Made by a program: the position numbers and the translations under genes | Part shown: positions 1,216 to 58,119 of the stretch, in pieces | Layout of the letters: every line of letters begins with the position of its first letter | Position numbering within the stretch: the stretch's first letter is position 1 | The notes under the pieces: generated by a model | What the model was told of the DNA's origin: nothing | Seen by the model: the letters and a program-made list of their open reading frames with translations, nothing else | Database searches by the model: none | IMG/VR virus record: IMGVR_UViG_3300035670_000245 | Location: 1 to 58,119 of that record | Reading direction: 5' to 3' (one strand) | Origin: a virus | Lineage: Duplodnaviria; Caudoviricetes | Length of the DNA: 58,119 bases

Positions 1216-1364
1216 GACTACTGTACAAATTGCCATTAGGGTTATCCCTAGGAAAATTTATTTCGTTTGTTTTCAATGACTTGCTGCACTGCACCACAGA
1301 GTTGGCACGATTCTTTCCCCTTTCTATAGGAGGGGGCCAGTTTTTTGCTGACCCTGATTTTACC

Positions 1365-2440: not shown

Positions 2441-2456
2441 TGGCACTTTAATTGCC
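2441..2456 (+). promoter_or_regulatory. Sigma54-type promoter motif
   Basis: TGGCACTTTAATTGCC, GG-N10-GC; also one arm of an inverted repeat at 2420-2455. Confidence 0.5.
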
Positions 2457-2486: not shown

Positions 2487-2549
2487 CCTTAGGGATAGTA
2501 TTTACCCCTTGAACCGAAGGTGAAAGGGGAGTAAATACATCCCTGAAGG
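2487..2549 (+). promoter_or_regulatory. Long bulged leader hairpin (RNase III site-like), homologous to 57927..57984
   Basis: AGGGAT/ATCCCT, GTATTTAC/GTAAATAC, CCCTT/AAGGG, GA/GA internal loop, ACC-GAA-GGT apex. Confidence 0.65.
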
Positions 2550-3031: not shown

Positions 3032-3388
3032 ATGGCTAAGATCTTTACTGACACTGGCGTGGCTGAGGCACCTAACACTGACGCATACAAAAGATGGGTT
3101 ATCTGTGATGTGTGCGAAGGGGAAGGGAAGCACTCCCATTCTTTTGGGTGCATAACATCGTCCGAGATGGACGAATGGAGTGACGAGGAGCAGTCCCGTT
3201 ACTTTGCTGGCAAGTATGACCGGCGGTGTTCCGATTGTGATGGCAAGGGCAAGGTGAAAGTATACGCCGAAGGTGCGCCCTTTTGGGTGCGTAGGATATG
3301 GGCCAAGGAACGCTGCTATGCGCAGGTGTCTTTTGAATTGGCACAGGAATACGCCAAGGAGCGGAGAATGCTTGGCGGTGGGTATTAA
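3032..3388 (+). CDS. DnaJ-type zinc-finger protein
   Basis: CDVCEGEG and CSDCDGKG (two CxxCxGxG motifs); AAGGAG SD. Confidence 0.75.
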   Translation: MAKIFTDTGVAEAPNTDAYKRWVICDVCEGEGKHSHSFGCITSSEMDEWSDEEQSRYFAGKYDRRCSDCDGKGKVKVYAEGAPFWVRRIWAKERCYAQVSFELAQEYAKERRMLGGGY

Positions 3389-3394
3389 TTTTAA

Positions 3395-3410
3395 TGACGA
3401 ACCTTCGTCA
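3395..3410. promoter_or_regulatory. Palindromic operator-like site TGACGAA-CC-TTCGTCA
   Basis: Immediately before the AGGAG SD of gene 3426. Confidence 0.7.
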
Positions 3411-3425
3411 ATAGGAGAAACGCAA

Positions 3426-3629
3426 ATGGCTCGTTACATATACATGGTGCAAGGGTGTGATCACAAATTCACCACCAAGCAAGAGGCACAGGACTATGCC
3501 TCGTTTGATCGGTGTATTGAGTTCATGCATGGTAAGGCACCTTCGATAACCATAATATCCCGGCTCACACCCAAGCAGTACAAACAAATGCAGGCTCGTA
3601 AACAACTGGCACAGGAGGCACAGCAATGA
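3426..3629 (+). CDS. Hypothetical protein
   Basis: AGGAG SD, ATG 3426; ATGA overlap with next gene. Confidence 0.7.
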   Translation: MARYIYMVQGCDHKFTTKQEAQDYASFDRCIEFMHGKAPSITIISRLTPKQYKQMQARKQLAQEAQQ

Positions 3630-3919
3630 AAGGCATCACAGTAACCCGTAACCCGCAGATCAAGCTAACCCTGACTGCCGACGATTGGCAGTTATATGAT
3701 GACGAAGACCACCCTGCCAGGGTTATGGTTGCCCTTGACCTGAACGCTAACATTCAACGGATATTAAATAATCCTTCCTTGCCAGACAGCATGAAAAGGA
3801 GGGCTTGCCGGAATTACCTGCGTGTTTATGACAATTATGGTGCGTCAGATACTGAAGGCAGGGATATGTTAGACACGATTTTTTCTGAGTTCTTTGGCCC
3901 TGAATATGAGGAGGCCTGA
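3626..3919 (+). CDS. Hypothetical protein
   Basis: GGAGG SD, translational coupling. Confidence 0.7.
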   Translation: MKGITVTRNPQIKLTLTADDWQLYDDEDHPARVMVALDLNANIQRILNNPSLPDSMKRRACRNYLRVYDNYGASDTEGRDMLDTIFSEFFGPEYEEA

Positions 3920-3921
3920 TC

Positions 3922-4200
3922 ATGAAATTCTACGGTTCGTATGGCAATCAGTACAGGTACAACAAGTTCGGAGATAAGGTGCCCTTGGCACAGCCCTCCC
4001 CTCCCCCGGTTGTGTCTGATGAGTACCAGATCAAGGTGTACATTCGGGAAGTGTACGGGAATACCCTGATCTATCCAGCCTGCAATAAGGCAAAACTCTT
4101 TGCTAAAATTGCAGGTACAAAAACCCTGTTGCCTAATGTATTGGAGAGTATCAAGGCACTGGGCTATACCGTAACCACAATAGTTAATCGGGAGGTTTAA
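3922..4200 (+). CDS. Hypothetical protein
   Basis: GAGGAGG SD; VYGNTLIYP...AGTKTL phage motif. Confidence 0.7.
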   Translation: MKFYGSYGNQYRYNKFGDKVPLAQPSPPPVVSDEYQIKVYIREVYGNTLIYPACNKAKLFAKIAGTKTLLPNVLESIKALGYTVTTIVNREV

Positions 4201-4202
4201 TC

Positions 4203-4496
4203 ATGCAACGCAACATGATTGGCAATGTAATCCGGGTCTATCCACCTGATGCACCACAAGAATATGTTGACTGCCTACTGGCACAGGTGGAACCCAACCT
4301 TGTCTGTGCCATATGCCTGGACACTGGCAACAGGCTAGATGACCCGTGTTTTGTACGCAATACCATGAACCTGACCAGCGAGGACATGGACAGGATACTA
4401 GGGAAGGGTGCCTGCTTTGATCTGCTGAAGGAAGCAAAGCACCCCAAGTGGCTAACAGATATGATGGTTAAACTTAAACCAGACTGGCCTTTTTAA
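4203..4496 (+). CDS. Hypothetical protein
   Basis: GGAGG SD, tight packing. Confidence 0.7.
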   Translation: MQRNMIGNVIRVYPPDAPQEYVDCLLAQVEPNLVCAICLDTGNRLDDPCFVRNTMNLTSEDMDRILGKGACFDLLKEAKHPKWLTDMMVKLKPDWPF

Positions 4497-4506
4497 GGAT
4501 ATAAAA

Positions 4507-4662
4507 ATGAGTGACAACGAAGCAGTGACCCTGGCATTCGACTTGCTAGAGGGTGCCGAGGTAGTGCAAGTATATGATGACACCCTGTGGATTAAGGTAG
4601 ACAGGGGTTCGTACAATGCACTGTATCAACACATGTACCCACAACAATTCACAGAGGAGTAA
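4507..4662 (+). CDS. Small hypothetical protein (51 aa)
   Basis: Not in ORF track; AAGGA SD, MSDNEAVTLAFDLLEG... Confidence 0.6.
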   Translation: MSDNEAVTLAFDLLEGAEVVQVYDDTLWIKVDRGSYNALYQHMYPQQFTEE

Positions 4663-5063: not shown

Positions 5064-5424
5064 GGTATTTGTCTACCGTAATCTGCACAAGGATTGCTGG
5101 TCTGTTAAGGCACTGGACGGGGAGTTCAAGGGCAGGGTTATCTACCATGCCAAAGAGATCCCCCTCTGGGACTGCAAGTTCAAGGTCAGTGAGGCTGGCA
5201 GACAGCGGGTCTTGCGTGAGAGATCCAAGAATGTACATGCTGGTGTGGTTGGCTACATGTACGATGACATGCTGGCACCGGCAGTGCAGGCACCAATCCG
5301 TATTACCTACAATCCATACAGGTACAACTCTTTCGTAACTGCCGAAGGATTACAGGCAGTGGGCACAGCGGAGTATGTGTGCATGAAGAATGACAAGTCT
5401 GTGTGGGCATGGGCAACTCGTTAG
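5056..5424 (+). CDS. Conserved phage protein
   Basis: GGAGG SD; VYRNLHK...FKVSEAGRQRVLRE...KNVHA...YNPY pattern common in phages. Confidence 0.75.
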   Translation: MRKVFVYRNLHKDCWSVKALDGEFKGRVIYHAKEIPLWDCKFKVSEAGRQRVLRERSKNVHAGVVGYMYDDMLAPAVQAPIRITYNPYRYNSFVTAEGLQAVGTAEYVCMKNDKSVWAWATR

Positions 5425-11975: not shown

Positions 11976-12749
11976 ATGTACGCTAATCAATTCGTCAAAG
12001 AACTGGATCTAGCTGAGGGCTACACCTACAGGGGTGACTGCCCTGTGTGTGGTAGGAAGAATACTTTCACAGCCAAGAATGACATGGGTAATCTGGTGTG
12101 GAACTGCTACTCGCATAGCTGCAAGACATCCGGGGGTACCCGTACTAACCTGACAGTGGAGGATATAAAGAGACTTATTCTCAGACAAGAGGACAACCAG
12201 GATATAGAAATATTTTCCTTACCCCCCTATGTTGTAGTGAATTACAACAATGAACACCTAGCCAATGTCTGTGATGCCTATGGTCTGAATGCGACATTGC
12301 TGGATCTCAGGTATGACATCAAGGAATCTAGGGTTGTGTTTCCTATCTACCAGAATGGATTGATTGTGGATGCAGTAGGCAGGGGTAAGGCTAACTCCGG
12401 GGCACCCAAGTGGAAGAGGTATGGCAAGGCCAGGACAGCCTATGTCAGGGGCACACACCCTGTGGCAGTTGTTGTAGAAGATGCAATATCTGCCGCTGTG
12501 GTAGAGACTCTTGGTGGCACTGGCTTTGCCATCCTGGGTACCCAACTACTAGATGAGCATGTTCAGATGCTACGGGCTTATGAGCGGGTCATTGTTGCAC
12601 TAGATCCTGATGCAGCTACAAAGACTATCCAGTACAAGCGAGAATTGTTCTCCAATGGCATTGACTCCTTCGCCATGAACCTGTATGATGACCTGAAGTA
12701 CCGGACTGTAGATGATACAGAGTCTCTTAAAAAACTATTAGCGAGATAA
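11976..12749 (+). CDS. DNA primase (Zn finger + TOPRIM)
   Basis: CPVC...CYSHSC; VVEDAISA; ALDPDA. Confidence 0.9.
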   Translation: MYANQFVKELDLAEGYTYRGDCPVCGRKNTFTAKNDMGNLVWNCYSHSCKTSGGTRTNLTVEDIKRLILRQEDNQDIEIFSLPPYVVVNYNNEHLANVCDAYGLNATLLDLRYDIKESRVVFPIYQNGLIVDAVGRGKANSGAPKWKRYGKARTAYVRGTHPVAVVVEDAISAAVVETLGGTGFAILGTQLLDEHVQMLRAYERVIVALDPDAATKTIQYKRELFSNGIDSFAMNLYDDLKYRTVDDTESLKKLLAR

Positions 12750-20729: not shown

Positions 20730-21740
20730 ATGACACCATACTCGACTTACATAGCCAAGTCCCGCTACTCTCGTTTCCTTAACACAGAGAACCGGCGGGA
20801 GAACTGGAACGAAACTGTAACCCGTTACTTCAACTTTATGGAGGATCACCTAGCTAAAAATTATAGCTATAATTTAACCCGTGATCTTCGTACCAAACTA
20901 GAGAATGCCGTACTAAACCTGGAAGTAATGCCCAGCATGAGGGCACTAATGACTGCAGGTAAGGCACTTGAACGGGACAACACTGCCGGTTACAATTGTT
21001 CATACATCCCTATTGATGACCCCAAAGCTTTCGATGAAGCTATGTACATTTTACTATGTGGAACGGGCGTAGGTTTCTCTGTGGAGCAGAAGTATGTCAA
21101 TCAATTACCTGAAGTACCCGATCAACTTTTTGATAGTCAAACTACTATCGTGGTTTCCGATTCAAAGGAAGGGTGGGCTAAAGCACTACGACAGCTACTG
21201 GCTCTTCTTTATTCTGGTGAAGTTGCAAAGTGGGATCTATCGAAGGTTAGGCCAGCGGGTGCTAGACTTAAGACATTTGGAGGACGAGCCAGTGGCCCCG
21301 CCCCACTGGAAGAGTTATTTAAATTTACCATCGCTAAATTCCGAGGTGCATTGGGTCGCCGTCTCACTTCGATTGAATGCCATGATATTCTGTGCAAGAT
21401 CGGGGAAGTTGTTGTGGTTGGCGGGGTGCGTAGATCGGCAATGATCTCTCTGTCGGATCTTGAGGATGACAAGATGCGGCACTGTAAGTCCGGTGCATGG
21501 TGGGAACAGAACGGGCAACGGGCACTAGCAAATAACTCAGCTACATATGTACAGAAACCTGACACAAGTCAGTTCCTGCATGAGTGGACAAGCTTATATG
21601 ATTCACACAGTGGTGAGCGAGGTATCTTTAGTCGTGAGGCATCGATTAAGCAAGCCGCTAAAAACGGGCGTAGGAACCCTGACTACGAGTTTGGTACCAA
21701 TCCATGCTCAGAGATCATATTGCGGCCTTACCAATTCTGT
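20730..21740 (+). CDS. nrdJ: Class II (B12-dependent) ribonucleotide reductase, exon 1
   Basis: PSMR, YNCSY, GTGVGFS, GGVRRSA, GTNPCSEI; ends ...PYQFC at the splice site. Confidence 0.9.
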
Positions 21741-21938
21741 TAATTTTAGCAGCCTTACATAGTAATATGTATTGCAAACCGTGTGAATTCAGGGGAAGTC
21801 CAGACCGGATAATCCTGACCCAAGTTAAATCGGGGGCAACGACTAGTCGAAAGACGTACACTCAAGCGAGTGGAAGCGCACGGCACCCTCATGGGGTGAT
21901 GATATAGTCTAAGCTGCATAGGAATATGCAGATGGGTG

Positions 21939-22014: not shown

Positions 22015-22464
22015 GTGGAAAGAAATAGAGAAGGTTACTTGGTTTCAGATACGCATAGAGAGTGTACTAATTGCAAGTGCATATTTGAAAAGACAAGTAA
22101 AATGACGTTGTGTAAAACGTGTAACAGTGAAAGAGTTAAGTCACAGACACCAGAGTGGAAAATGCACCAAAGGGCAAAACAGCGGAGTAAAGAAACTGGC
22201 AGGGAATTCAGCTTGTTGGTTTCTGATATAGTAATACCCGATGTCTGCCCCATATTGGGGATTAAATTGAATATGAATTCTGGTAAATCTGGTGCTTATA
22301 GAAACTCACCTTCACTTGATCGCATAGACAATAGTAGAGGCTACACTAAAGATAACATTCAAGTTATCTCTCAGTTAGCAAATGCAATGAAATGTCATGC
22401 GACTAACTCTGAGTTACATATGTTTGCACAATGGGTTCTTTCCAATGTCCCTGCCGCAGAGTAG
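22015..22464 (+). CDS. Intron-encoded HNH-like homing endonuclease
   Basis: CTNC...CKTC zinc finger; CPILG...SPSLDRIDNSRGYTKDN...AN.MK; GTG start with AAGGAGG. Confidence 0.85.
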   Translation: MERNREGYLVSDTHRECTNCKCIFEKTSKMTLCKTCNSERVKSQTPEWKMHQRAKQRSKETGREFSLLVSDIVIPDVCPILGIKLNMNSGKSGAYRNSPSLDRIDNSRGYTKDNIQVISQLANAMKCHATNSELHMFAQWVLSNVPAAE

Positions 22465-23600: not shown

Positions 23601-26600
23601 CTATCTATACTTACTTAGCAAGGCTTGATACTTGTGTACCTGATCATACGCCTTGTCTTCATCTAGTGTACGCCCTTCATTATTCTCTGCGTACAATTCA
23701 TTAATAGCTTTCCGATCACGCTGCGGCATGTTGAAGAAAGTCATCTTATTAACCCTGGCCCTGTCTTCCATAGTCATCTCAGCTTGAGATAGATTTCTGC
23801 CTATGCTCATTGCATAGCGCATGTTAGCTGTAATAGCCAGCTTCCTCTGAGCAGGGGTCATCTCCTGATACCGATCAGAGTCAATAAGCTTACCTACAAA
23901 CTTATCTATGTATGGACCGCTCTTCATAATCAGAGTGCGGTCATACACCTTATCACCACTTGTACCATAGAAAGTAAACGGGTCTAAACTAAGAGACTTG
24001 AATTCTCTTTCTATTTTATTTACAGCAGGCACAACACGCACACCTGATAAGACATTAAAAAACTCACCGGCACGGGTACGAACTTCTTGTTCATTGCGTA
24101 AGTATTGTAGTGCTTCAGGTAATTCCTCTTTCCATCCTGGCACTTTAACTTGCACACGATTGATAGCAGATTCAGTTACAAGGTCATCACTCATTAGAAC
24201 ATTCGGATCTCTTGCAATCTGTGCTTCTTCATCAAACATATCCAAGAAAGCAAACACGGGTTGTGCAGGCTGTACGAACCTTCCAGCAACATCGCCAATG
24301 ACCTTACCAATAGCTTTCTCAAATCGTTCTGCTTCTTTTCCTTCTTCTGCAGCTACAAGTTCTGGTATGCTATTTAATATACTAGCTTGTGCCCCGGCTG
24401 GCATCTTCATACCTGCAATAGCTTCAAGCATTTCAGTTACATTAGCCTCTGCTACTTTGCCCAACTTCAACTTTGCAATGAAGTCACCGACTGCAAGATA
24501 AGGGCCAATAGGGAATATAGCCCTCATGTCTGCAGTAGAACCGTCTTCATTCTCAATGTTAAACCACTCAGTGCCCTGGTTTTCTAATCGATATTTGTAA
24601 GCAGCGTAAATTGCGCTTGTTCCTATTACACCTTTAGAAAACTTTTCTAGCCCTTCCCTGTACAAACGATTAGCTTGGTCTGGGTCTTTTGAAAACTTAG
24701 CAGCAGCCATGAGCATATCTGACATACCAGACGTAGCACCTAAAGGGCTGTACTTATACTGGAATGCCATAGCATTAGTCATAAATCTTGGGAAGGTAAC
24801 AAGCAAGCTACCCCCAGGAAGGTTCTCAAAGAACCGCACAAAGCCATTGGCAAGACCTTCTACCTTAGCTTCTACAGTATTCTGCCCCTTCTTGGCTGGC
24901 TTAGGCATGTAAGAGAAGGTTCCCTTAAGTGCATCGTCAGCAGCGTTCTTAAGTATGTCTGGTGGTATATTTTTACCGTCAGCCATAATCTGGTACATGT
25001 CCATGCCTACCCTGCGTAGCTGCCTTTCAACGCTAGCAGTGAAGATTGCTCTACGGAAGTAAACGTCTTGTGCTACGTTAAGTGTGTTTACAAACTTAGC
25101 TACACGGCTTAAATCTTCTGTACCACTTTCTTGTAGGGCATGGAATATAGTGTTCTTTAAATTAGGATTATGGGCCAGAAGCTTATCAGTTACTTCAGCC
25201 GTTATACCTGCATTAGTAAGGTAGGTAAAAGTATTTAAAGTGTCACGCACCATAGTGTTAAGCCCTGTGCCCAACTCCTTGACACCTGACTTAACACCGC
25301 CGTTAACTGCAGCCTTTAGTGCAGATCCTGTAGCAAATAACGTGCCTTCTATTATGCGAGAAGCTGCTTCCATAGTAAGGCCAGCAGTAGTACCATATGC
25401 GTTACGTACAGTTGTAGCTATACTAGAAACAACCAATGCTTTTGATTCTCGTTCTAGTCTTTTAATCCCGTCAGCAAGATAACCCATGACACTGGTTACC
25501 TCTTGATCCCTGCCGTACATTTTCTTAACCAGCCTCTCAGCCTCTGGATCAAGCTGTACAGCCCTCTTGAGTACCTTGGCAAGGGTGGAGTACCCCTGCA
25601 TGATAGAAGCGGCATCAGCGACCGTTGTGCGGGTTGCCTGACCAAACTCTTTGAGTGTCAGTCCTGTTTTGTTCAAGGCAGCATCAAGCACATCTTCGTC
25701 TATTGAATCGATAGACATAAAGACATCTTTAACTGCATCAGAAACCTTTTGTTGACCGGCAGCTACCCGTTGCTTTACCTGGGAGAAGTTTGGGTCTACA
25801 GTAAGAATGTACCTAGCTACATTAATTGCACGGGTATTAATATCTTTACGAACTTCTGCCTGTGTCAATGCTGTCTGTGGTGACACCGCATCTAATATTT
25901 CTCTACCCTCAAAGATATCAAACTTAGTAAGAGTGTCTTCCATGTCAGCATCAAAAGCTTCCACAAGCTTCTGTGTCTGTACGTCTTCTGGTGTCTTAAT
26001 ACGTGAAGCTAAAACTTTTTCTAGGTCTTCTTTGGTAGTCAGCTTTGGTTTACGGAAAGCGGTAGCTGCCTCAGCAGCACCAAACACAGCACTAACTGCA
26101 GCACCCAGTGCTACCCGTGTTGGATCTATAGTTCTTTCTTGGTTATCCATTTCAGAAAGATCTATATCTGCAACTAATGCATCGTACCTTTCTTGATCAA
26201 TGATTCCAAACTCTAAAGCTTCTTGCGCTTCTTGTTTTTCTTTTTCAAGGTTGTCCGTTACAAGTGCTTTATCTAGTTTCAATTCACGCTGTAAATCTGC
26301 CGCACTGGCAGCAGCACCAACGGCACCTTCAGTAACAGCACCGGCAGTAGCAGCTTTAATACGATTTTTTATTGCGCCTTTGATTCCCTCCCGTGCAGCT
26401 TTATATCTAGCAAATGCACCTACACCAAAGCCCAGCAAGTTAGACGGGTCAGAGGCCATAGACAATGCAGCCTCAGCAAAAGGTCTTATCCCAGGCTGAC
26501 CGCCCTTCTCGTACCAGTCAGGTACTTTCTCATACAACTCATGGGCCTTGGCTGCTTTAAGTACATCTTCTTTCTTTGCGTTATAGATCCAGTTAAGTTC

Positions 26601-27029
26601 TGGCACACCATTCATTGTGGTGTTCCACTCAACCTGACGCATAGCAGTCATCCAACGCTTTACATACTCTTCGTCAGTTTCGTTTTGTTGTTGTTCACCC
26701 GCCTTACCAAATCTAACAACGGCATAGTCCTTAATAGTTTTAAGGTTCTCTGGCTTTGTCAGATTCTTAAAGTCAACAATTTCTTTAGGTGGTAATTCTT
26801 TGACCGGTTCAGCAGGTTCTTCTACAGTAGGCGCAGCCATACCCGTCTCTAATTCAAACTGAGAGGGAGCAGGACTAAAAGCTTCTTTAGTTTGTTTAGC
26901 AACAGACTTTGCAACAGGTGCAGATGGTAAAGCAAACTCCTCATCTTCCGACTTAAACTTAGAAGATGTTGGTGCCTTGTAGGGTTTAGTTAAATCAAAC
27001 TCATCATCTACATTAATTGTAGCTGCCAT
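23601..27029 (-). CDS. Large internal virion (ejection) protein
   Basis: 1142 aa, helical, last gene of the structural arm, as in podoviruses. Confidence 0.65.
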   Translation of the reverse strand: MAATINVDDEFDLTKPYKAPTSSKFKSEDEEFALPSAPVAKSVAKQTKEAFSPAPSQFELETGMAAPTVEEPAEPVKELPPKEIVDFKNLTKPENLKTIKDYAVVRFGKAGEQQQNETDEEYVKRWMTAMRQVEWNTTMNGVPELNWIYNAKKEDVLKAAKAHELYEKVPDWYEKGGQPGIRPFAEAALSMASDPSNLLGFGVGAFARYKAAREGIKGAIKNRIKAATAGAVTEGAVGAAASAADLQRELKLDKALVTDNLEKEKQEAQEALEFGIIDQERYDALVADIDLSEMDNQERTIDPTRVALGAAVSAVFGAAEAATAFRKPKLTTKEDLEKVLASRIKTPEDVQTQKLVEAFDADMEDTLTKFDIFEGREILDAVSPQTALTQAEVRKDINTRAINVARYILTVDPNFSQVKQRVAAGQQKVSDAVKDVFMSIDSIDEDVLDAALNKTGLTLKEFGQATRTTVADAASIMQGYSTLAKVLKRAVQLDPEAERLVKKMYGRDQEVTSVMGYLADGIKRLERESKALVVSSIATTVRNAYGTTAGLTMEAASRIIEGTLFATGSALKAAVNGGVKSGVKELGTGLNTMVRDTLNTFTYLTNAGITAEVTDKLLAHNPNLKNTIFHALQESGTEDLSRVAKFVNTLNVAQDVYFRRAIFTASVERQLRRVGMDMYQIMADGKNIPPDILKNAADDALKGTFSYMPKPAKKGQNTVEAKVEGLANGFVRFFENLPGGSLLVTFPRFMTNAMAFQYKYSPLGATSGMSDMLMAAAKFSKDPDQANRLYREGLEKFSKGVIGTSAIYAAYKYRLENQGTEWFNIENEDGSTADMRAIFPIGPYLAVGDFIAKLKLGKVAEANVTEMLEAIAGMKMPAGAQASILNSIPELVAAEEGKEAERFEKAIGKVIGDVAGRFVQPAQPVFAFLDMFDEEAQIARDPNVLMSDDLVTESAINRVQVKVPGWKEELPEALQYLRNEQEVRTRAGEFFNVLSGVRVVPAVNKIEREFKSLSLDPFTFYGTSGDKVYDRTLIMKSGPYIDKFVGKLIDSDRYQEMTPAQRKLAITANMRYAMSIGRNLSQAEMTMEDRARVNKMTFFNMPQRDRKAINELYAENNEGRTLDEDKAYDQVHKYQALLSKYR

Positions 27030-44488: not shown

Positions 44489-44752
44489 GATATTTGTCCT
44501 CCTAAGACAATGTAAAAGATAAAATAATCTTAAGCTATTCTAAGATAGCCTAAATTAAAATACGCTTACACACTTACTACAGAGGCTGGCATCATTTGGT
44601 GCGTTTATACTTGAGCGCCCCCAAGCATAATACGGGCAAATATGTTACAGGTAATTCTGTGTTCGTTGTTTTGCGTTACAAGTTTTAAATTTGCCGGGGG
44701 CCATTACTGGGGCGGCATCGGGAGCAAAGATGTATGCCTACACCTTTGTCCC
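44489..44752 (-). promoter_or_regulatory. Long structured 5' leader of the capsid gene
   Basis: About 260 nt non-coding with several nested stems downstream of a promoter. Confidence 0.55.
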
Positions 44753-55429: not shown

Positions 55430-55936
55430 TTACTTGTTACGGCTACCGCCAGAGGCTTTTACAGAAGCACCACAGTTAGCCATACCCCCCTTGGCATAAT
55501 TCTTAGCCATGCCACCGCCCATCATCTTCTTGGTGCCCATGCCACCTGCAGCATACTTCTTAGCCATACCACCTTTAGCCATTGCACTACGGCCCACTTC
55601 CCCAAGTTTCTTTTTAAGTGCCCTACGCTCTGCAGGAGAGTAACCTTCTTCAACTTCTTCCAGGGTACGCTTAGTATTCTTAGCACTACCCATGTTATCT
55701 AGTTCTTCCTGAATAGCTTTCTTTTCTGCTGCAGTAAGACCCTTTTCTTTAGCCTTACCCTTTTCTTTCAGGGAAGCCTGCATGTCAGCCTTTTCTTTTT
55801 CAGTCAGGCGTACACTCTTTTCTTTCTTACCTGCATCTTCAGGCTGACCAAACATACTTTTCTTAGCTGCCTTGTCCATCTGTTCTACATTCTTAGGTCC
55901 AAGACGCTTTAGTACTTTACTCAATGCTGCTGCCAT
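55430..55936 (-). CDS. Basic protein with repeated (M/Y)AxGG motifs
   Basis: AAAGGA SD before ATG 55936 (MAAALSK). Confidence 0.7.
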   Translation of the reverse strand: MAAALSKVLKRLGPKNVEQMDKAAKKSMFGQPEDAGKKEKSVRLTEKEKADMQASLKEKGKAKEKGLTAAEKKAIQEELDNMGSAKNTKRTLEEVEEGYSPAERRALKKKLGEVGRSAMAKGGMAKKYAAGGMGTKKMMGGGMAKNYAKGGMANCGASVKASGGSRNK

Positions 55937-55937
55937 T

Positions 55938-56255
55938 TCAAATTCCTTTCGTGTGTTTTTGGGATTTAGGGGGCAACTTCTTAGAACCTGACGGACCTGC
56001 CCACAGTCGCTTATCAGCCCAATATGCCGCAGATAATTTACCCTTGGCAATATTCTTTCCATGTCTTGCTTTAAAACTCTTCCTAGCCTCTTCACTGTAG
56101 TTATGCCCCATAGTGGCATCACCATAGTGAATCAACTTAACCTTGTCACCTTCCTTGGCTACAACCATTTCCTTTTTGCCAGGACGGTTAGACTTCTTGG
56201 GCTGGTTGTAACCAGTAAATCCCAGTTTCTTGTATCGTTCAGGGAATTCAGCCAT
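55938..56255 (-). CDS. Basic protein (DUF6321-like)
   Basis: KLIHYG...RKSFKARH...SAAYWA. Confidence 0.65.
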   Translation of the reverse strand: MAEFPERYKKLGFTGYNQPKKSNRPGKKEMVVAKEGDKVKLIHYGDATMGHNYSEEARKSFKARHGKNIAKGKLSAAYWADKRLWAGPSGSKKLPPKSQKHTKGI

Positions 56256-56256
56256 G

Positions 56257-56712
56257 TTACTTTTTCTTGGGTGCAGGCTTTTTAGCTACTGGTTTTTTAG
56301 CTACAGGCTTTTTAACTGCTGGTTTCTTTTTGACCATCCCGCCTTTGGCAAAGTCTTCACCAGTAGCCCGACTGTATTCATTGGCAATAGAATCCCGCAT
56401 ATCGTCTGAACTTTGTAGCTTACGCTTATTTGCATTAATACGATTCTTAAGAGACTTGTCAGACATTAAACCAGGAAATTTTTTCTGCCTTTCTTTTAAC
56501 TCTTTGACCATTTCTTTGTTGCCAGTGCGCCGGTCTAGTTCTTGTTTGGCATAGTGCTTTTCGTCAGAAGTTCCGCTCTTAGCAGCTTTTTCTAACTCAT
56601 CTTTTTTCATTCTTTCAACTTTACGTTGAACTTCAGCTTCTTCAACTACTCTTTTTGTGTAACCACTTTTATCTTTTTTAGCTAACTTTGCTGCAAATTT
56701 ACCGAGCGACAT
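56257..56712 (-). CDS. Basic protein with histone H1-like KKP(A/V) tail
   Basis: GGAGG SD; FAKGG then KKPAVKKPVAKKPVAKKPAPKKK. Confidence 0.7.
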   Translation of the reverse strand: MSLGKFAAKLAKKDKSGYTKRVVEEAEVQRKVERMKKDELEKAAKSGTSDEKHYAKQELDRRTGNKEMVKELKERQKKFPGLMSDKSLKNRINANKRKLQSSDDMRDSIANEYSRATGEDFAKGGMVKKKPAVKKPVAKKPVAKKPAPKKK

Positions 56713-56713
56713 T

Positions 56714-56923
56714 TCACTTCCTCCATCCAAGGGAACGCATAGAAGACTCTACCTGAGCCAAAGAAAAAAGTATTCCTGTCCGTTCCTTCAAGGCAACACG
56801 AACAAAGAATACATCCGAGTGGGGTACATGTAGATTGTCTAGATAGTTCCCTACAAGTGCTTCATAGAAATCTTCTAGTACAAAATTATCACGTAGGTAT
56901 ACAGTTTTTTTAGATTTAGTCAA
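56714..56923 (-). CDS. First late-arm protein
   Basis: HVPHSDVFFVR motif; TTG start. Confidence 0.55.
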   Translation of the reverse strand: MTKSKKTVYLRDNFVLEDFYEALVGNYLDNLHVPHSDVFFVRVALKERTGILFSLAQVESSMRSLGWRK

Positions 56924-57180
56924 GCTATTTCTGCAGTTTCAAAGGTACAGATAGAAACTACACATTTAGGGGATACAGATAGTATCTATGTAGGTGTGTC
57001 ACTTTAGGTGTGACACTTAAGTGAGTGTGTGTTTTTTAGGGGTAGTCCTAAGTTTATATATGTAATGTGTTAATTACTTTATTTTATAAACTTTAAATAC
57101 ATTACAGTTATATAGTTTTTTATAGTTATAATATTATATAGTTATAGTATTAAACACTCTCACACTTTCCCTTAACGGTA

Positions 57181-57209
57181 GTTATACACACGTTTTAGTG
57201 TTTTGTCAA
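57181..57209 (-). promoter_or_regulatory. Sigma70-type late promoter
   Basis: TTGACA-N17-TATAAC(TAC). Confidence 0.7.
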
Positions 57210-57266
57210 GACTTATGTCAATAAAACCTAAAATAAATATTTCTGTACATCTTCTTGACGTTTAAG

Positions 57267-57295
57267 ATTTTAGCATATTTTCTGTCCCGTGTCAA
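57267..57295 (-). promoter_or_regulatory. Second sigma70-type late promoter
   Basis: TTGACA-N17-TAAAAT with TG extension. Confidence 0.6.
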
Positions 57296-57538
57296 ATCAC
57301 TAAGCATATGCGTCTACCGATATATGAAAACCAGTGTTAACATTTGTGTGTGATAAGGCATGTTAGTGATTACTAACTAATACTAAAAACCTGATCTGTG
57401 TAAGAGTCCATATACATATAACGCCAGACCCCCCGGTGGCCCAGGCCCGGCCCCCCTCGCATGATGCACGGGCGCAGGATGTCACATACGCATGATGCGA
57501 TCACGACATCACGGATAGCGCATGATATTTGCTATGCA

Positions 57539-57551
57539 AATCAAGGGGTTA
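57539..57551 (+). promoter_or_regulatory. IHF consensus site
   Basis: AATCAA-GGGG-TTA matches WATCAANNNNTTR. Confidence 0.55.
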
Positions 57552-57763
57552 GATCTAAGGTTATACTGATTTCATATCAGTATCTGGTCAAAAATCGAAA
57601 GTGAACCGGGCCGATTCCGACAGGTGGTCAAAGATTGACCAGTCGGTGCATCAATTGCCCCTTTTCATTTTACAAATGAAGGGGTGGGGTCTGGTCATTG
57701 CCGAACCTTCGTCAATAAGTTTGGCTATGCCAAAAAGCTAGTTTGACCCCTTGCCAATGTAAT

Positions 57764-57779
57764 TGGCACGGTCTGTGCT
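57764..57779 (+). promoter_or_regulatory. Sigma54-type promoter motif
   Basis: TGGCACGGTCTGTGCT, GG-N10-GC. Confidence 0.55.
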
Positions 57780-57870
57780 TCTGGTCGATTCCCCGAAACC
57801 GAGTCGGCTTTGCCTTGCCTCATCACATACGAAACTTCCCGTCAGCCTTTGGCTTCCTGCGTGGAAGTTT

Positions 57871-57886
57871 TGGCATGGCCTTTGCT
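57871..57886 (+). promoter_or_regulatory. Sigma54-type promoter motif
   Basis: TGGCATGGCCTTTGCT, near-consensus TGGCAYR-N4-TTGCW. Confidence 0.65.
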
Positions 57887-57909
57887 GGGGGTCAAAATCG
57901 ACCGGCAGA

Positions 57910-58007
57910 CCTTTCATGGGTTTCATGGGGACTAGTAAATTACCCCTTGAAGCTTTGGTGAAAGGGGAATAATTTACAGTCCCCTTCTTATGAAACCCAA
58001 TGAAAGG
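57910..58007 (+). promoter_or_regulatory. About 100-nt leader hairpin sequestering the RBS of gene 1
   Basis: CCTTTCAT/ATGAAAGG, GGGTTTCAT/ATGAAACCC, GGGGACT/AGTCCCC, GTAAATTA/TAATTTAC, CCCCTT/AAGGGG. Confidence 0.7.
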
Positions 58008-58119
58008 AAATTGAAAATGAGATCAATCGCCGCTACTTTCGCCTTGTTTTTCATCCTCATGGCTTTGCCATGCTTTGCCATTGCAGCAGTACTGCCTTTC
58101 GGCAGTGCTGAGTCATTGT
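57993..58119. repeat. Second copy of the 127-bp terminal overlap
   Basis: Identical to 1..127. Confidence 0.9.

Follow-up and report, generated by a model that had tools for sequence, protein, structure and literature searches.

Conserved sigma-54-type promoter elements before the early genes of an HMO-2011-like phage clade

The window analysed here is the complete viral record IMGVR_UViG_3300035670_000245, a phage genome of 58,119 bases and of the HMO-2011 type, in which three -24/-12 elements (P-up, P1 and P2) stand before genes of the rightward, early arm. With slightly more confidence than doubt, we read these elements as genuine promoters of the host sigma-54 (RpoN) polymerase that would depend on a host activator. 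The two-part motif is in excess, and its intergenic copies are placed and oriented as promoters would be. The positions critical for sigma-54 are conserved across eight contigs, in which no sigma-70-type promoter occurs at this place, and a canonical sigma-70 promoter stands at the orthologous place in a sister clade.

Position, excess and conservation of the -24/-12 elements

P-up (TGGCAC-N5-GTGCT) occupies 57764..57779 on the + strand, with its GG at 57765-6 and its GC at 57777-8, and P1 (TGGCAT-N5-TTGCT) follows downstream at 57871..57886 (+; GG 57872-3, GC 57884-5). P2 (TGGCAC-N5-TTGCC) is found at 2441..2456 (+), before the second of two leader hairpins and the gene at 2603. The predicted transcription starts, ~12 nt past the GC, are ~57790 for P-up, ~57897 for P1, which is ~30 nt 5' of leader hairpin 1, and ~2467 for P2. 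A preliminary description of this DNA had quoted the strings TGGCACGGTCTGTGCT (57764), TGGCATGGCCTTTGCT (57871), TGGCACTTTAATTGCC (2441) and TGGCACGATTCTTTCC (1303), all of which we verified at these coordinates; the first three also have GG-N10-GC spacing and point into the rightward arm. All three elements are intergenic, co-oriented with and upstream of a gene, and free of sigma-70 hexamers. In addition, P1 fits YTGGCAYGr-N3-TTGCW, which we take to be the extended consensus.

The pattern TGGCAYNNNNNKTGC (TGGCAY-N5-KTGC) occurs six times in the window, each time on the + strand, whereas shuffled sequences hold 0.57 on average and none of 100 shuffles reaches six. Half of the matches are coding and lie at 4532..4546 (+), within a 51-aa open reading frame (ORF; 4507-4662), and at 5273-5287 and 12515-12529 (both +). 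The 12515 match also occurs at the homologous coding place in the relative L055, so that coding constraint may explain it. The other three, P-up, P1 and P2, are intergenic; for the 2,802 nt of intergenic DNA on the + strand, 0.016 matches are expected from a first-order Markov simulation (Poisson P for at least three = 7e-7). TGGCA by itself has 107 copies on one strand and 104 on the other, indicating that the excess belongs to the two-part motif. Furthermore, P-up resembles P1 beyond the core and the two are ~107 bp apart; the pair looks like a tandem duplication, which brings the number of independent events nearer to two than to three.

Relatives were gathered from viral and metagenome collections by the core of the leader hairpin alone, the motif not being used, and filtering for leader-like hits gave 30 distinct hairpin units, which were sorted by eye into five sequence groups. 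The window's clade comprises eight contigs, namely the window, L054, L055 (= L001), L066, L081, L074 (= L002), L105 and L142. The strict motif stands 40-58 nt before the hairpin segment in all 10 units of this clade and in none of the 20 units of other clades. In one of the other clades, all four units carry a sigma-70 promoter of 10-11/12 directly before the hairpin. By comparison, the best sigma-70 score in the window's clade is at most 9/12, and where it reaches 9 the match is formed by the motif's own TTGGCA.

Alignment of the 180 nt 5' of the hairpin leaves 33 of 206 columns invariant, and the longest invariant blocks are the TTGGCAT and TTGC of P1. P1 is kept in 8/8 clade contigs with four different spacers, and an element stands at the aligned place of P-up in seven of the eight, including the window, with none in L074. 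Three stacked copies are present in L054, and the spacing within tandem sets of two to three copies is 93-107 bp. P2 is kept in L055, L066, L081 and L105, where its spacer TTTAA is also conserved. The GG-N10-GC spacing is kept in related phages while the spacer drifts, a check that the preliminary description had proposed. According to the available part of an Escherichia coli study by chromatin immunoprecipitation sequencing (PMC4591121), GG and TGC are important for sigma-54 and certain other motif positions are uninformative. Divided into these classes, the P-up and P1 orthologues show changes in 0/65 comparisons at important positions and in 13/65 at uninformative ones (L074 excluded for P-up), a pattern rather than a strict probability, as the sequences are related. 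The eight clade contigs together (110,259 nt) hold 29 strict matches, 25 in the early-gene direction and four in reverse. In the more distant gp88-bearing phages L003-L047 (420,686 nt), 23 matches are found, 19 of them in ORFs of at least 60 aa and several repeating one coding site or one tRNA-like site.

Two further observations concern related elements. In four relatives (L054 at 7875, L066 at 6066, L105 at 2086, L074 at 5921), the gap that follows the first conserved early gene contains an extra -24/-12 element, leftward on the reverse strand, from which a short antisense transcript or a small RNA could be made; the same gap in the window holds a small hydrophobic ORF (1063-1215) and no such element. 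The TGGAAC..GCA sequences of group D relatives were considered as a second sigma-54-like class and dropped, their spacing being inconsistent from one relative to another.

Sigma-70-type matches, dyads and the IHF site

The strongest sigma-70-type match of the genome, TTGACA-17-TAAAAT with a TG (11/12), lies at 57295..57267 on the - strand and faces the structural arm. Genome-wide, intergenic sigma-70 matches of at least 10/12 occur on the - strand only, at this place and at 44516 before the major head gene, and the + strand intergenic DNA of the whole genome contains none. This agrees with the preliminary description, which saw no good sigma-70 promoter for the early arm. Its further statement that middle and late promoters are clear sigma-70 types holds for the leftward structural arm and is not confirmed for the middle genes, as the + strand matches of at least 10/12 all lie within coding DNA. 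Readings of the region as sigma-28, sigma-32 or extracytoplasmic-function (GGAAC..TCAAA) promoters, made by eye, were dropped, since the spacing or the second element is not conserved.

For a fourth site, which the preliminary description had listed as a degenerate sigma-54 motif, that assignment is not supported. This element (1302..1330, +), which precedes the gp88-family gene at 1400, has a TGGCAC resembling a -24 half and TC where the -12 GC is expected. L054, L066 and L074 retain it, in each case lacking the -12 GC, and it resembles the element of group B relatives; a terminator-like hairpin at 1316-1336 overlaps it. Judged by its sequence, the 1303 element appears better read as a sigma-70-type TTGGCA-17-TATAGG and is not counted among the sigma-54-type elements.

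This arrangement raises the question of whether P-up, P1 and P2 are themselves weak sigma-70-type promoters, in which TTGGCA would be the -35 hexamer and TTGC would be conserved for another reason. TTGGCA-17-CAAAAT at 57870 scores 9/12, counterparts in L055, L066, L081 and L105 score 8-9/12, and the 1303 and group B elements fit TTGGCA with a TA-rich box 16-17 nt on. We consider this explanation quite unlikely, however. On reading the sequences, no candidate -10 hexamer is conserved 3' of TTGGCA in P1 or P-up: conservation of the would-be -10 fails in L054, L074 and L142 and after all copies of P-up, whereas TTGC is invariant. Moreover, the real sigma-70 promoter of the sister clade scores 10-11/12 at the same place.

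Palindromic sequences are prominent around the elements. The palindrome TGCCAAT-GTA-ATTGGCA at 57752..57768, a candidate operator or hairpin, has the -24 element of P-up as its right half, and the form TGCCAAT-N3-ATTGGCA is kept at P-up and, varied, at P2 in relatives. A terminator-like hairpin at 2428-2446 has the -24 half of P2 as its 3' arm and the conserved T-rich spacer as its tail, so that a double role of this sequence is possible. It could be argued from this that hairpins or palindromic operators are what selection has kept and that the -24/-12 likeness is a by-product, the -24 halves of both P-up and P2 being dyad arms and the T-rich tail at P2 being conserved. We regard this as very unlikely indeed: the best-conserved element, P1, lacks such a dyad at its -24 half, and dyads leave unexplained why, in 25 forward and four reverse copies, TGGCAY is followed at exactly six bases by an invariant TGC. 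P1 is instead adjoined at its -24 element by a hairpin at 57832..57870 (+) with an outer stem AAACTTCC/GGAAGTTT and an inner stem AGCC/GGCT, the latter changed on both sides in L055 and L142 (AGTCC/GGACT).

In addition, a 16-bp dyad (TGCCGAACCTTCGTCA) lies at 57699..57714, 64 nt 5' of P-up. Its form TGACGAAnnTTCGTCA has six matches in the window against 0.39 expected, all in the early region (777, 1364, 2567, 2996, 3395 and 57699), and four of the copies are directly 5' of ribosome-binding sites. Relatives carry variants of it (TGTCGAAnnTTCGACA) 25-95 nt 5' of their first element. The 16-bp dyad is likely the operator of an early regulator. Its copies, and likewise the palindromes that cover the -24 half at P-up and at P2, probably serve as operators through which a phage regulator would shut these promoters.

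The consensus site of integration host factor (IHF), AATCAAGGGGTTA, is located at 57539..57551 (+), 225 nt 5' of P-up. IHF consensus matches are not enriched in the window (two against 3.3 expected), and the site gains weight only because it is conserved in relatives: all five clade contigs that reach at least 300 nt upstream have a consensus IHF site, with three different N4 sequences. It lies 182-272 nt 5' of the first TGGCA, outside the ~100 nt from the start within which IHF lies in the usual architecture, and upstream of all other conserved dyads except the palindrome ACTGAT-N5-ATCAGT beside it (57564..57582), which also follows the IHF site in L054, L066, L105 and L142. A near-IHF site at 1271 is one position off the consensus. 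The preliminary description was thus right about the consensus at 57539, but the usual order of enhancer, IHF and promoter is not found, no recognisable enhancer lying beyond the site. None of the conserved upstream dyads is assignable to a known bacterial enhancer-binding protein (bEBP).

Other conserved sequences accompany this region. A strongly conserved block at 57383-57450 (ACCTGATCTGTGTAAGA..CCATATACATATAACGC..CCCCCC), flanked by the leftward sigma-70 promoter on one side and the IHF site on the other, recurs in L054, L066, L074, L105, L142 and the group B locus L006, and may be the physical genome end or a packaging site; if so, the sigma-54-type promoters would lie ~300-450 nt from the entering end. 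The group B loci L003, L006 and L010 (~3100-4300) carry four to five direct repeats TTCACCTTCGGTGTT 5' of their early promoter region. Similar repeats occur in L066 and L105, those of the window differ (TGGTCAAAnATCGA-like, at 57586, 57626, 57782 and 57889), and the arrays may be iterons of an origin or a regulator.

Regulators, leader hairpins and genome context

Six-frame searches of the window give no match to the AAA+ domain of bEBPs (PF00158), HTH_8, sigma-70 region 2 or the sigma-54 DNA-binding domain. The search with PF00940 for a T7-type RNA polymerase is likewise without a match and is uninformative, as its control is equally silent (0/14 genomes). Of the statement in the preliminary description that the phage has neither activator nor RNA polymerase, the first half is supported in six frames, and on the second this search is uninformative. 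Two large ORFs of the virion arm, of 1142 aa (23601-27029, -) and 1077 aa, match no PHROG family, and no Pfam family is common to the Atlas clusters nearest to them. Among the clusters close to the 1142-aa ORF, the first to bear a Pfam family carry polyvalent-protein domains (LPD38, LPD3 and MuF_C; scores 0.92-0.94), which are leads only. The idea of a cryptic RNA polymerase in either ORF gains no support, their Atlas neighbours not being polymerase-like.

These two ORFs bear on the proposal that a phage-specific system is at work, in which TTGGCAY..TTGC is read by an unrecognised RNA polymerase or by a factor that the phage encodes or carries in its virion, and the likeness to sigma-54 is coincidental. 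Such a system would accommodate both the lack of a PHROG family for the two ORFs and the conservation of TGGCAC elements without a -12 GC, and Pseudomonas phage YuA is described in the accessible text of PMC10914365 as having a conserved, phage-specific promoter motif that needs phage factors for activity. We judge it unlikely all the same, since the conserved positions correspond to the sigma-54-critical positions and spacing one for one; moreover, the searches for polymerase and sigma domains are without a match (the PF00940 control being silent), and the Atlas neighbours do not resemble RNA polymerases.

The sigma-54 holoenzyme might also be bound as a poised closed complex that blocks, insulates or silences the region, for example in a lysogen, with transcription arising at another place, such as the AT-rich stretch around 57119. 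According to the available part of PMC4591121, the holoenzyme occupies promoters in an inactive form, and in E. coli it binds at many places other than classical promoters. An integrase is present, no activator or enhancer has been found, and weak + strand sigma-70 matches occur upstream (57119 in the window, 6034 in L054). This use of the sites seems to us rather improbable, however, in that they are promoter-like in placement and orientation before each leader hairpin and the upstream sigma-70 matches are at chance level for AT-rich DNA.

The leader hairpins follow the promoter elements closely. Leader hairpin 1 (57927..57984, +), with a stem of 25-29 bp and the conserved core TTACCCCTTGAA..GTGAAAGGGGA, lies between P1 and the first start codon at 58017 (= window 25), and leader hairpin 2 (2491..2544, +) lies between P2 and the gene at 2603. 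Among the 30 hairpin units (loci L008 and L048-L142), the hairpin is always just 5' of the first early gene. The outer stems are wholly different between phage groups with pairing preserved, and the consensus fold of the MAFFT-aligned hairpins retains a 6-bp inner stem only. Rfam has no family for it, and an analogous hairpin is present at positions 1-45 of the HMO-2011 record. Over 25 sequences, 13 G-U pairs are counted in the forward and six in the reverse orientation, the stems being almost fully Watson-Crick. Cleavage by RNase III, stabilisation of the 5' end and action as a DNA dyad are possible roles of the leader hairpin. A sigma-70 promoter inside it was considered and rejected: scores of at least 9/12 occur in 4/28 forward sequences against 6/28 reverse complements, and in none of the window's clade.

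The last 127 bases of the window are a copy of its first 127 (1-127 and 57993-58119). Overlaps of such length are typical of circular assemblies closed at the largest k-mer, and this exact repeat need not be a true terminal repeat. Genes are rightward over 1-23,550 (gp88-family, L5 gp82-like, DUF932, integrase, ThyX, Toprim, helicase, polymerase, PD-(D/E)XK nuclease and ribonucleotide reductase) and leftward over 23,600-56,930 (including terminase, portal, major head and tail proteins), and a 1.1-kb non-coding region (56,924-58,016), which holds P-up, P1 and the IHF site, separates the diverging arms. At the DNA level, HMO-2011 and the CRP roseophages are the only matches to the region of helicase and polymerase. 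The family A DNA polymerase is closest to the HMO-2011 and CRP proteins, with 54-60% identity, and the gene order is in common with these phages, which places the window in the HMO-2011 type. Cultured phages yield no DNA match to the control region and no protein match to the first conserved early protein. A search of genome contigs with the DNA polymerase finds four loci in metagenome-assembled genomes of unrelated phyla, at no more than 58% identity; these are presumably binned phage contigs and so give no evidence of the host. Among the 20 sequencing runs listed as containing the window, none is of RNA; three DNA runs of one study contain 0.81-0.99 of the window's sampled words, one of which may be its source, and the other rows reach at most 0.30. 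The window contains no tRNA, and the stretch before the integrase holds one small ORF and no obvious attP.

Two features away from the control region are recorded here. A group I intron (RF00028, 21731-21931, 84.9 bits) is the sole Rfam match in the window and sits between an ORF with ribonucleotide reductase domains (20730-21743) and the ORF 22015-22464. In the leftward arm, a 69-aa ORF (56714-56923) is followed by the first larger ones, two ORFs (56257-56730 and 55430-56125, -) that encode Lys/Ala/Pro-rich proteins with tails resembling histone H1 (KKPVAKKP repeats; GGMAKK repeats) and match no family.

Proposed mechanism and comparison with known systems

We infer holoenzyme binding, the start sites, the dependence on a host activator and the identity of that activator as follows. 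Host RNA polymerase with sigma-54 would read the tandem P-up and P1 at the head of the rightward arm, and transcripts would start near 57790 and 57897, cross the leader hairpin and enter the first genes. P2 would restart transcription near 2467, ahead of the second hairpin copy. As the phage has no enhancer-binding ATPase, open-complex formation would need to be driven by a host bEBP, and the rightward arm, with its early and replication genes, would be conditional on the host's signalling state. The leftward structural arm would be served by an ordinary strong promoter of the sigma-70 type. We also suggest, as a tentative scenario that may well prove wrong, that in this HMO-2011-like clade, which encodes no activator, stacked sigma-54 promoters took the place of the sigma-70 early promoter seen in relatives, leaving an early arm gated by a host bEBP.

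Several points weigh against reading the elements as host sigma-54 promoters. The searches found neither an encoded activator nor a convincing enhancer, and the IHF site stands at a variable distance beyond the dyads and not between an enhancer and the promoter. The dependence of early genes on a host bEBP looks risky for a phage. TGGCAC elements that have no -12 GC (the 1303 element with its orthologues, and those of group B) are conserved too, so that TTGGCA may also be a -35 hexamer or be read by another factor. At P-up and P2 the -24 half is also a palindrome arm and may be conserved partly for another function. The independent observations are fewer than the counts, as P-up and P1 are paralogous and L066, L081 and L105 are nearly identical in this region. 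Finally, the matches in HMO-2011 and CRP-1 are at chance level, so that nothing can be transferred from a cultured system.

A phage that brings no RNA polymerase of its own is expected to rely on strong sigma-70 promoters at the start of infection. If the sigma-54 reading is true, infection or induction in this clade would be coupled to an active host activator (responding to nitrogen, envelope stress, RNA damage and the like), providing a direct and testable link from host physiology to phage take-off. In an integrase-bearing phage, such promoters could act as a latency switch that needs no repressor, the closed complexes staying silent until the host activator fires. The clade would also represent a natural swap of promoter class at one orthologous position, sigma-70 in the sister clade and sigma-54 here, and would be useful for the study of how promoters change class. 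Sigma-54 recognition is conserved across bacteria, which makes an in vitro test cheap.

Our search of the literature, which covered the main texts in one library of papers, finds no report of sigma-54 promoters in HMO-2011-type phages. The effects of rpoN on Salmonella phages are put down to metabolism and RpoS and not to phage promoters in the available text of one paper (PMC8744999), and another phage paper, in the part accessible, describes a weak sigma-54-like protein and not a promoter (PMC7693777). The sole published precedent that we found for a sigma-54-like phage promoter is P015 of phage YuA, which the accessible text of PMC10914365 supports with a mapped start site and a promoter trap. 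That phage relies on the host RNA polymerase, as the window's phage would, and has its sigma-54-like promoter beside sigma-70-like ones. By contrast, YuA is an unrelated Pseudomonas phage with one such promoter, as far as that text extends, whereas the window's clade, known from sequence alone, has several conserved copies before its first genes.

The sigma-54 promoters of E. coli, as mapped over the genome in the available part of PMC4591121, resemble the window's elements in the fixed spacing of the GG and TGC blocks, in a spacer of low information, in the lack of -35 and -10 hexamers, in a start predicted 19 bp past the motif centre and in the conservation profile. The elements of the window differ in that they stand in a phage without an activator gene or a recognisable enhancer, and in tandem at the head of an early arm. 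The HMO-2011-type podoviruses HMO-2011, CRP-1 and CRP-2 share with the window the order integrase, primase, helicase, polymerase and two convergent arms. In this regard, the difference lies in the promoters, since HMO-2011 and CRP-1 have one and two motif matches per genome, respectively, which is chance level, and the sigma-54-type elements are confined to the window's clade. T7-like phages have tandem early promoters, A1, A2 and A3, near the entering end, which are of the sigma-70 class and need no activator. The arrangement of several host-polymerase promoters stacked before the first genes is alike in the two systems, while the promoter class differs, being sigma-70 in the T7-like phages and, on the reading favoured here, sigma-54 in the window's clade.

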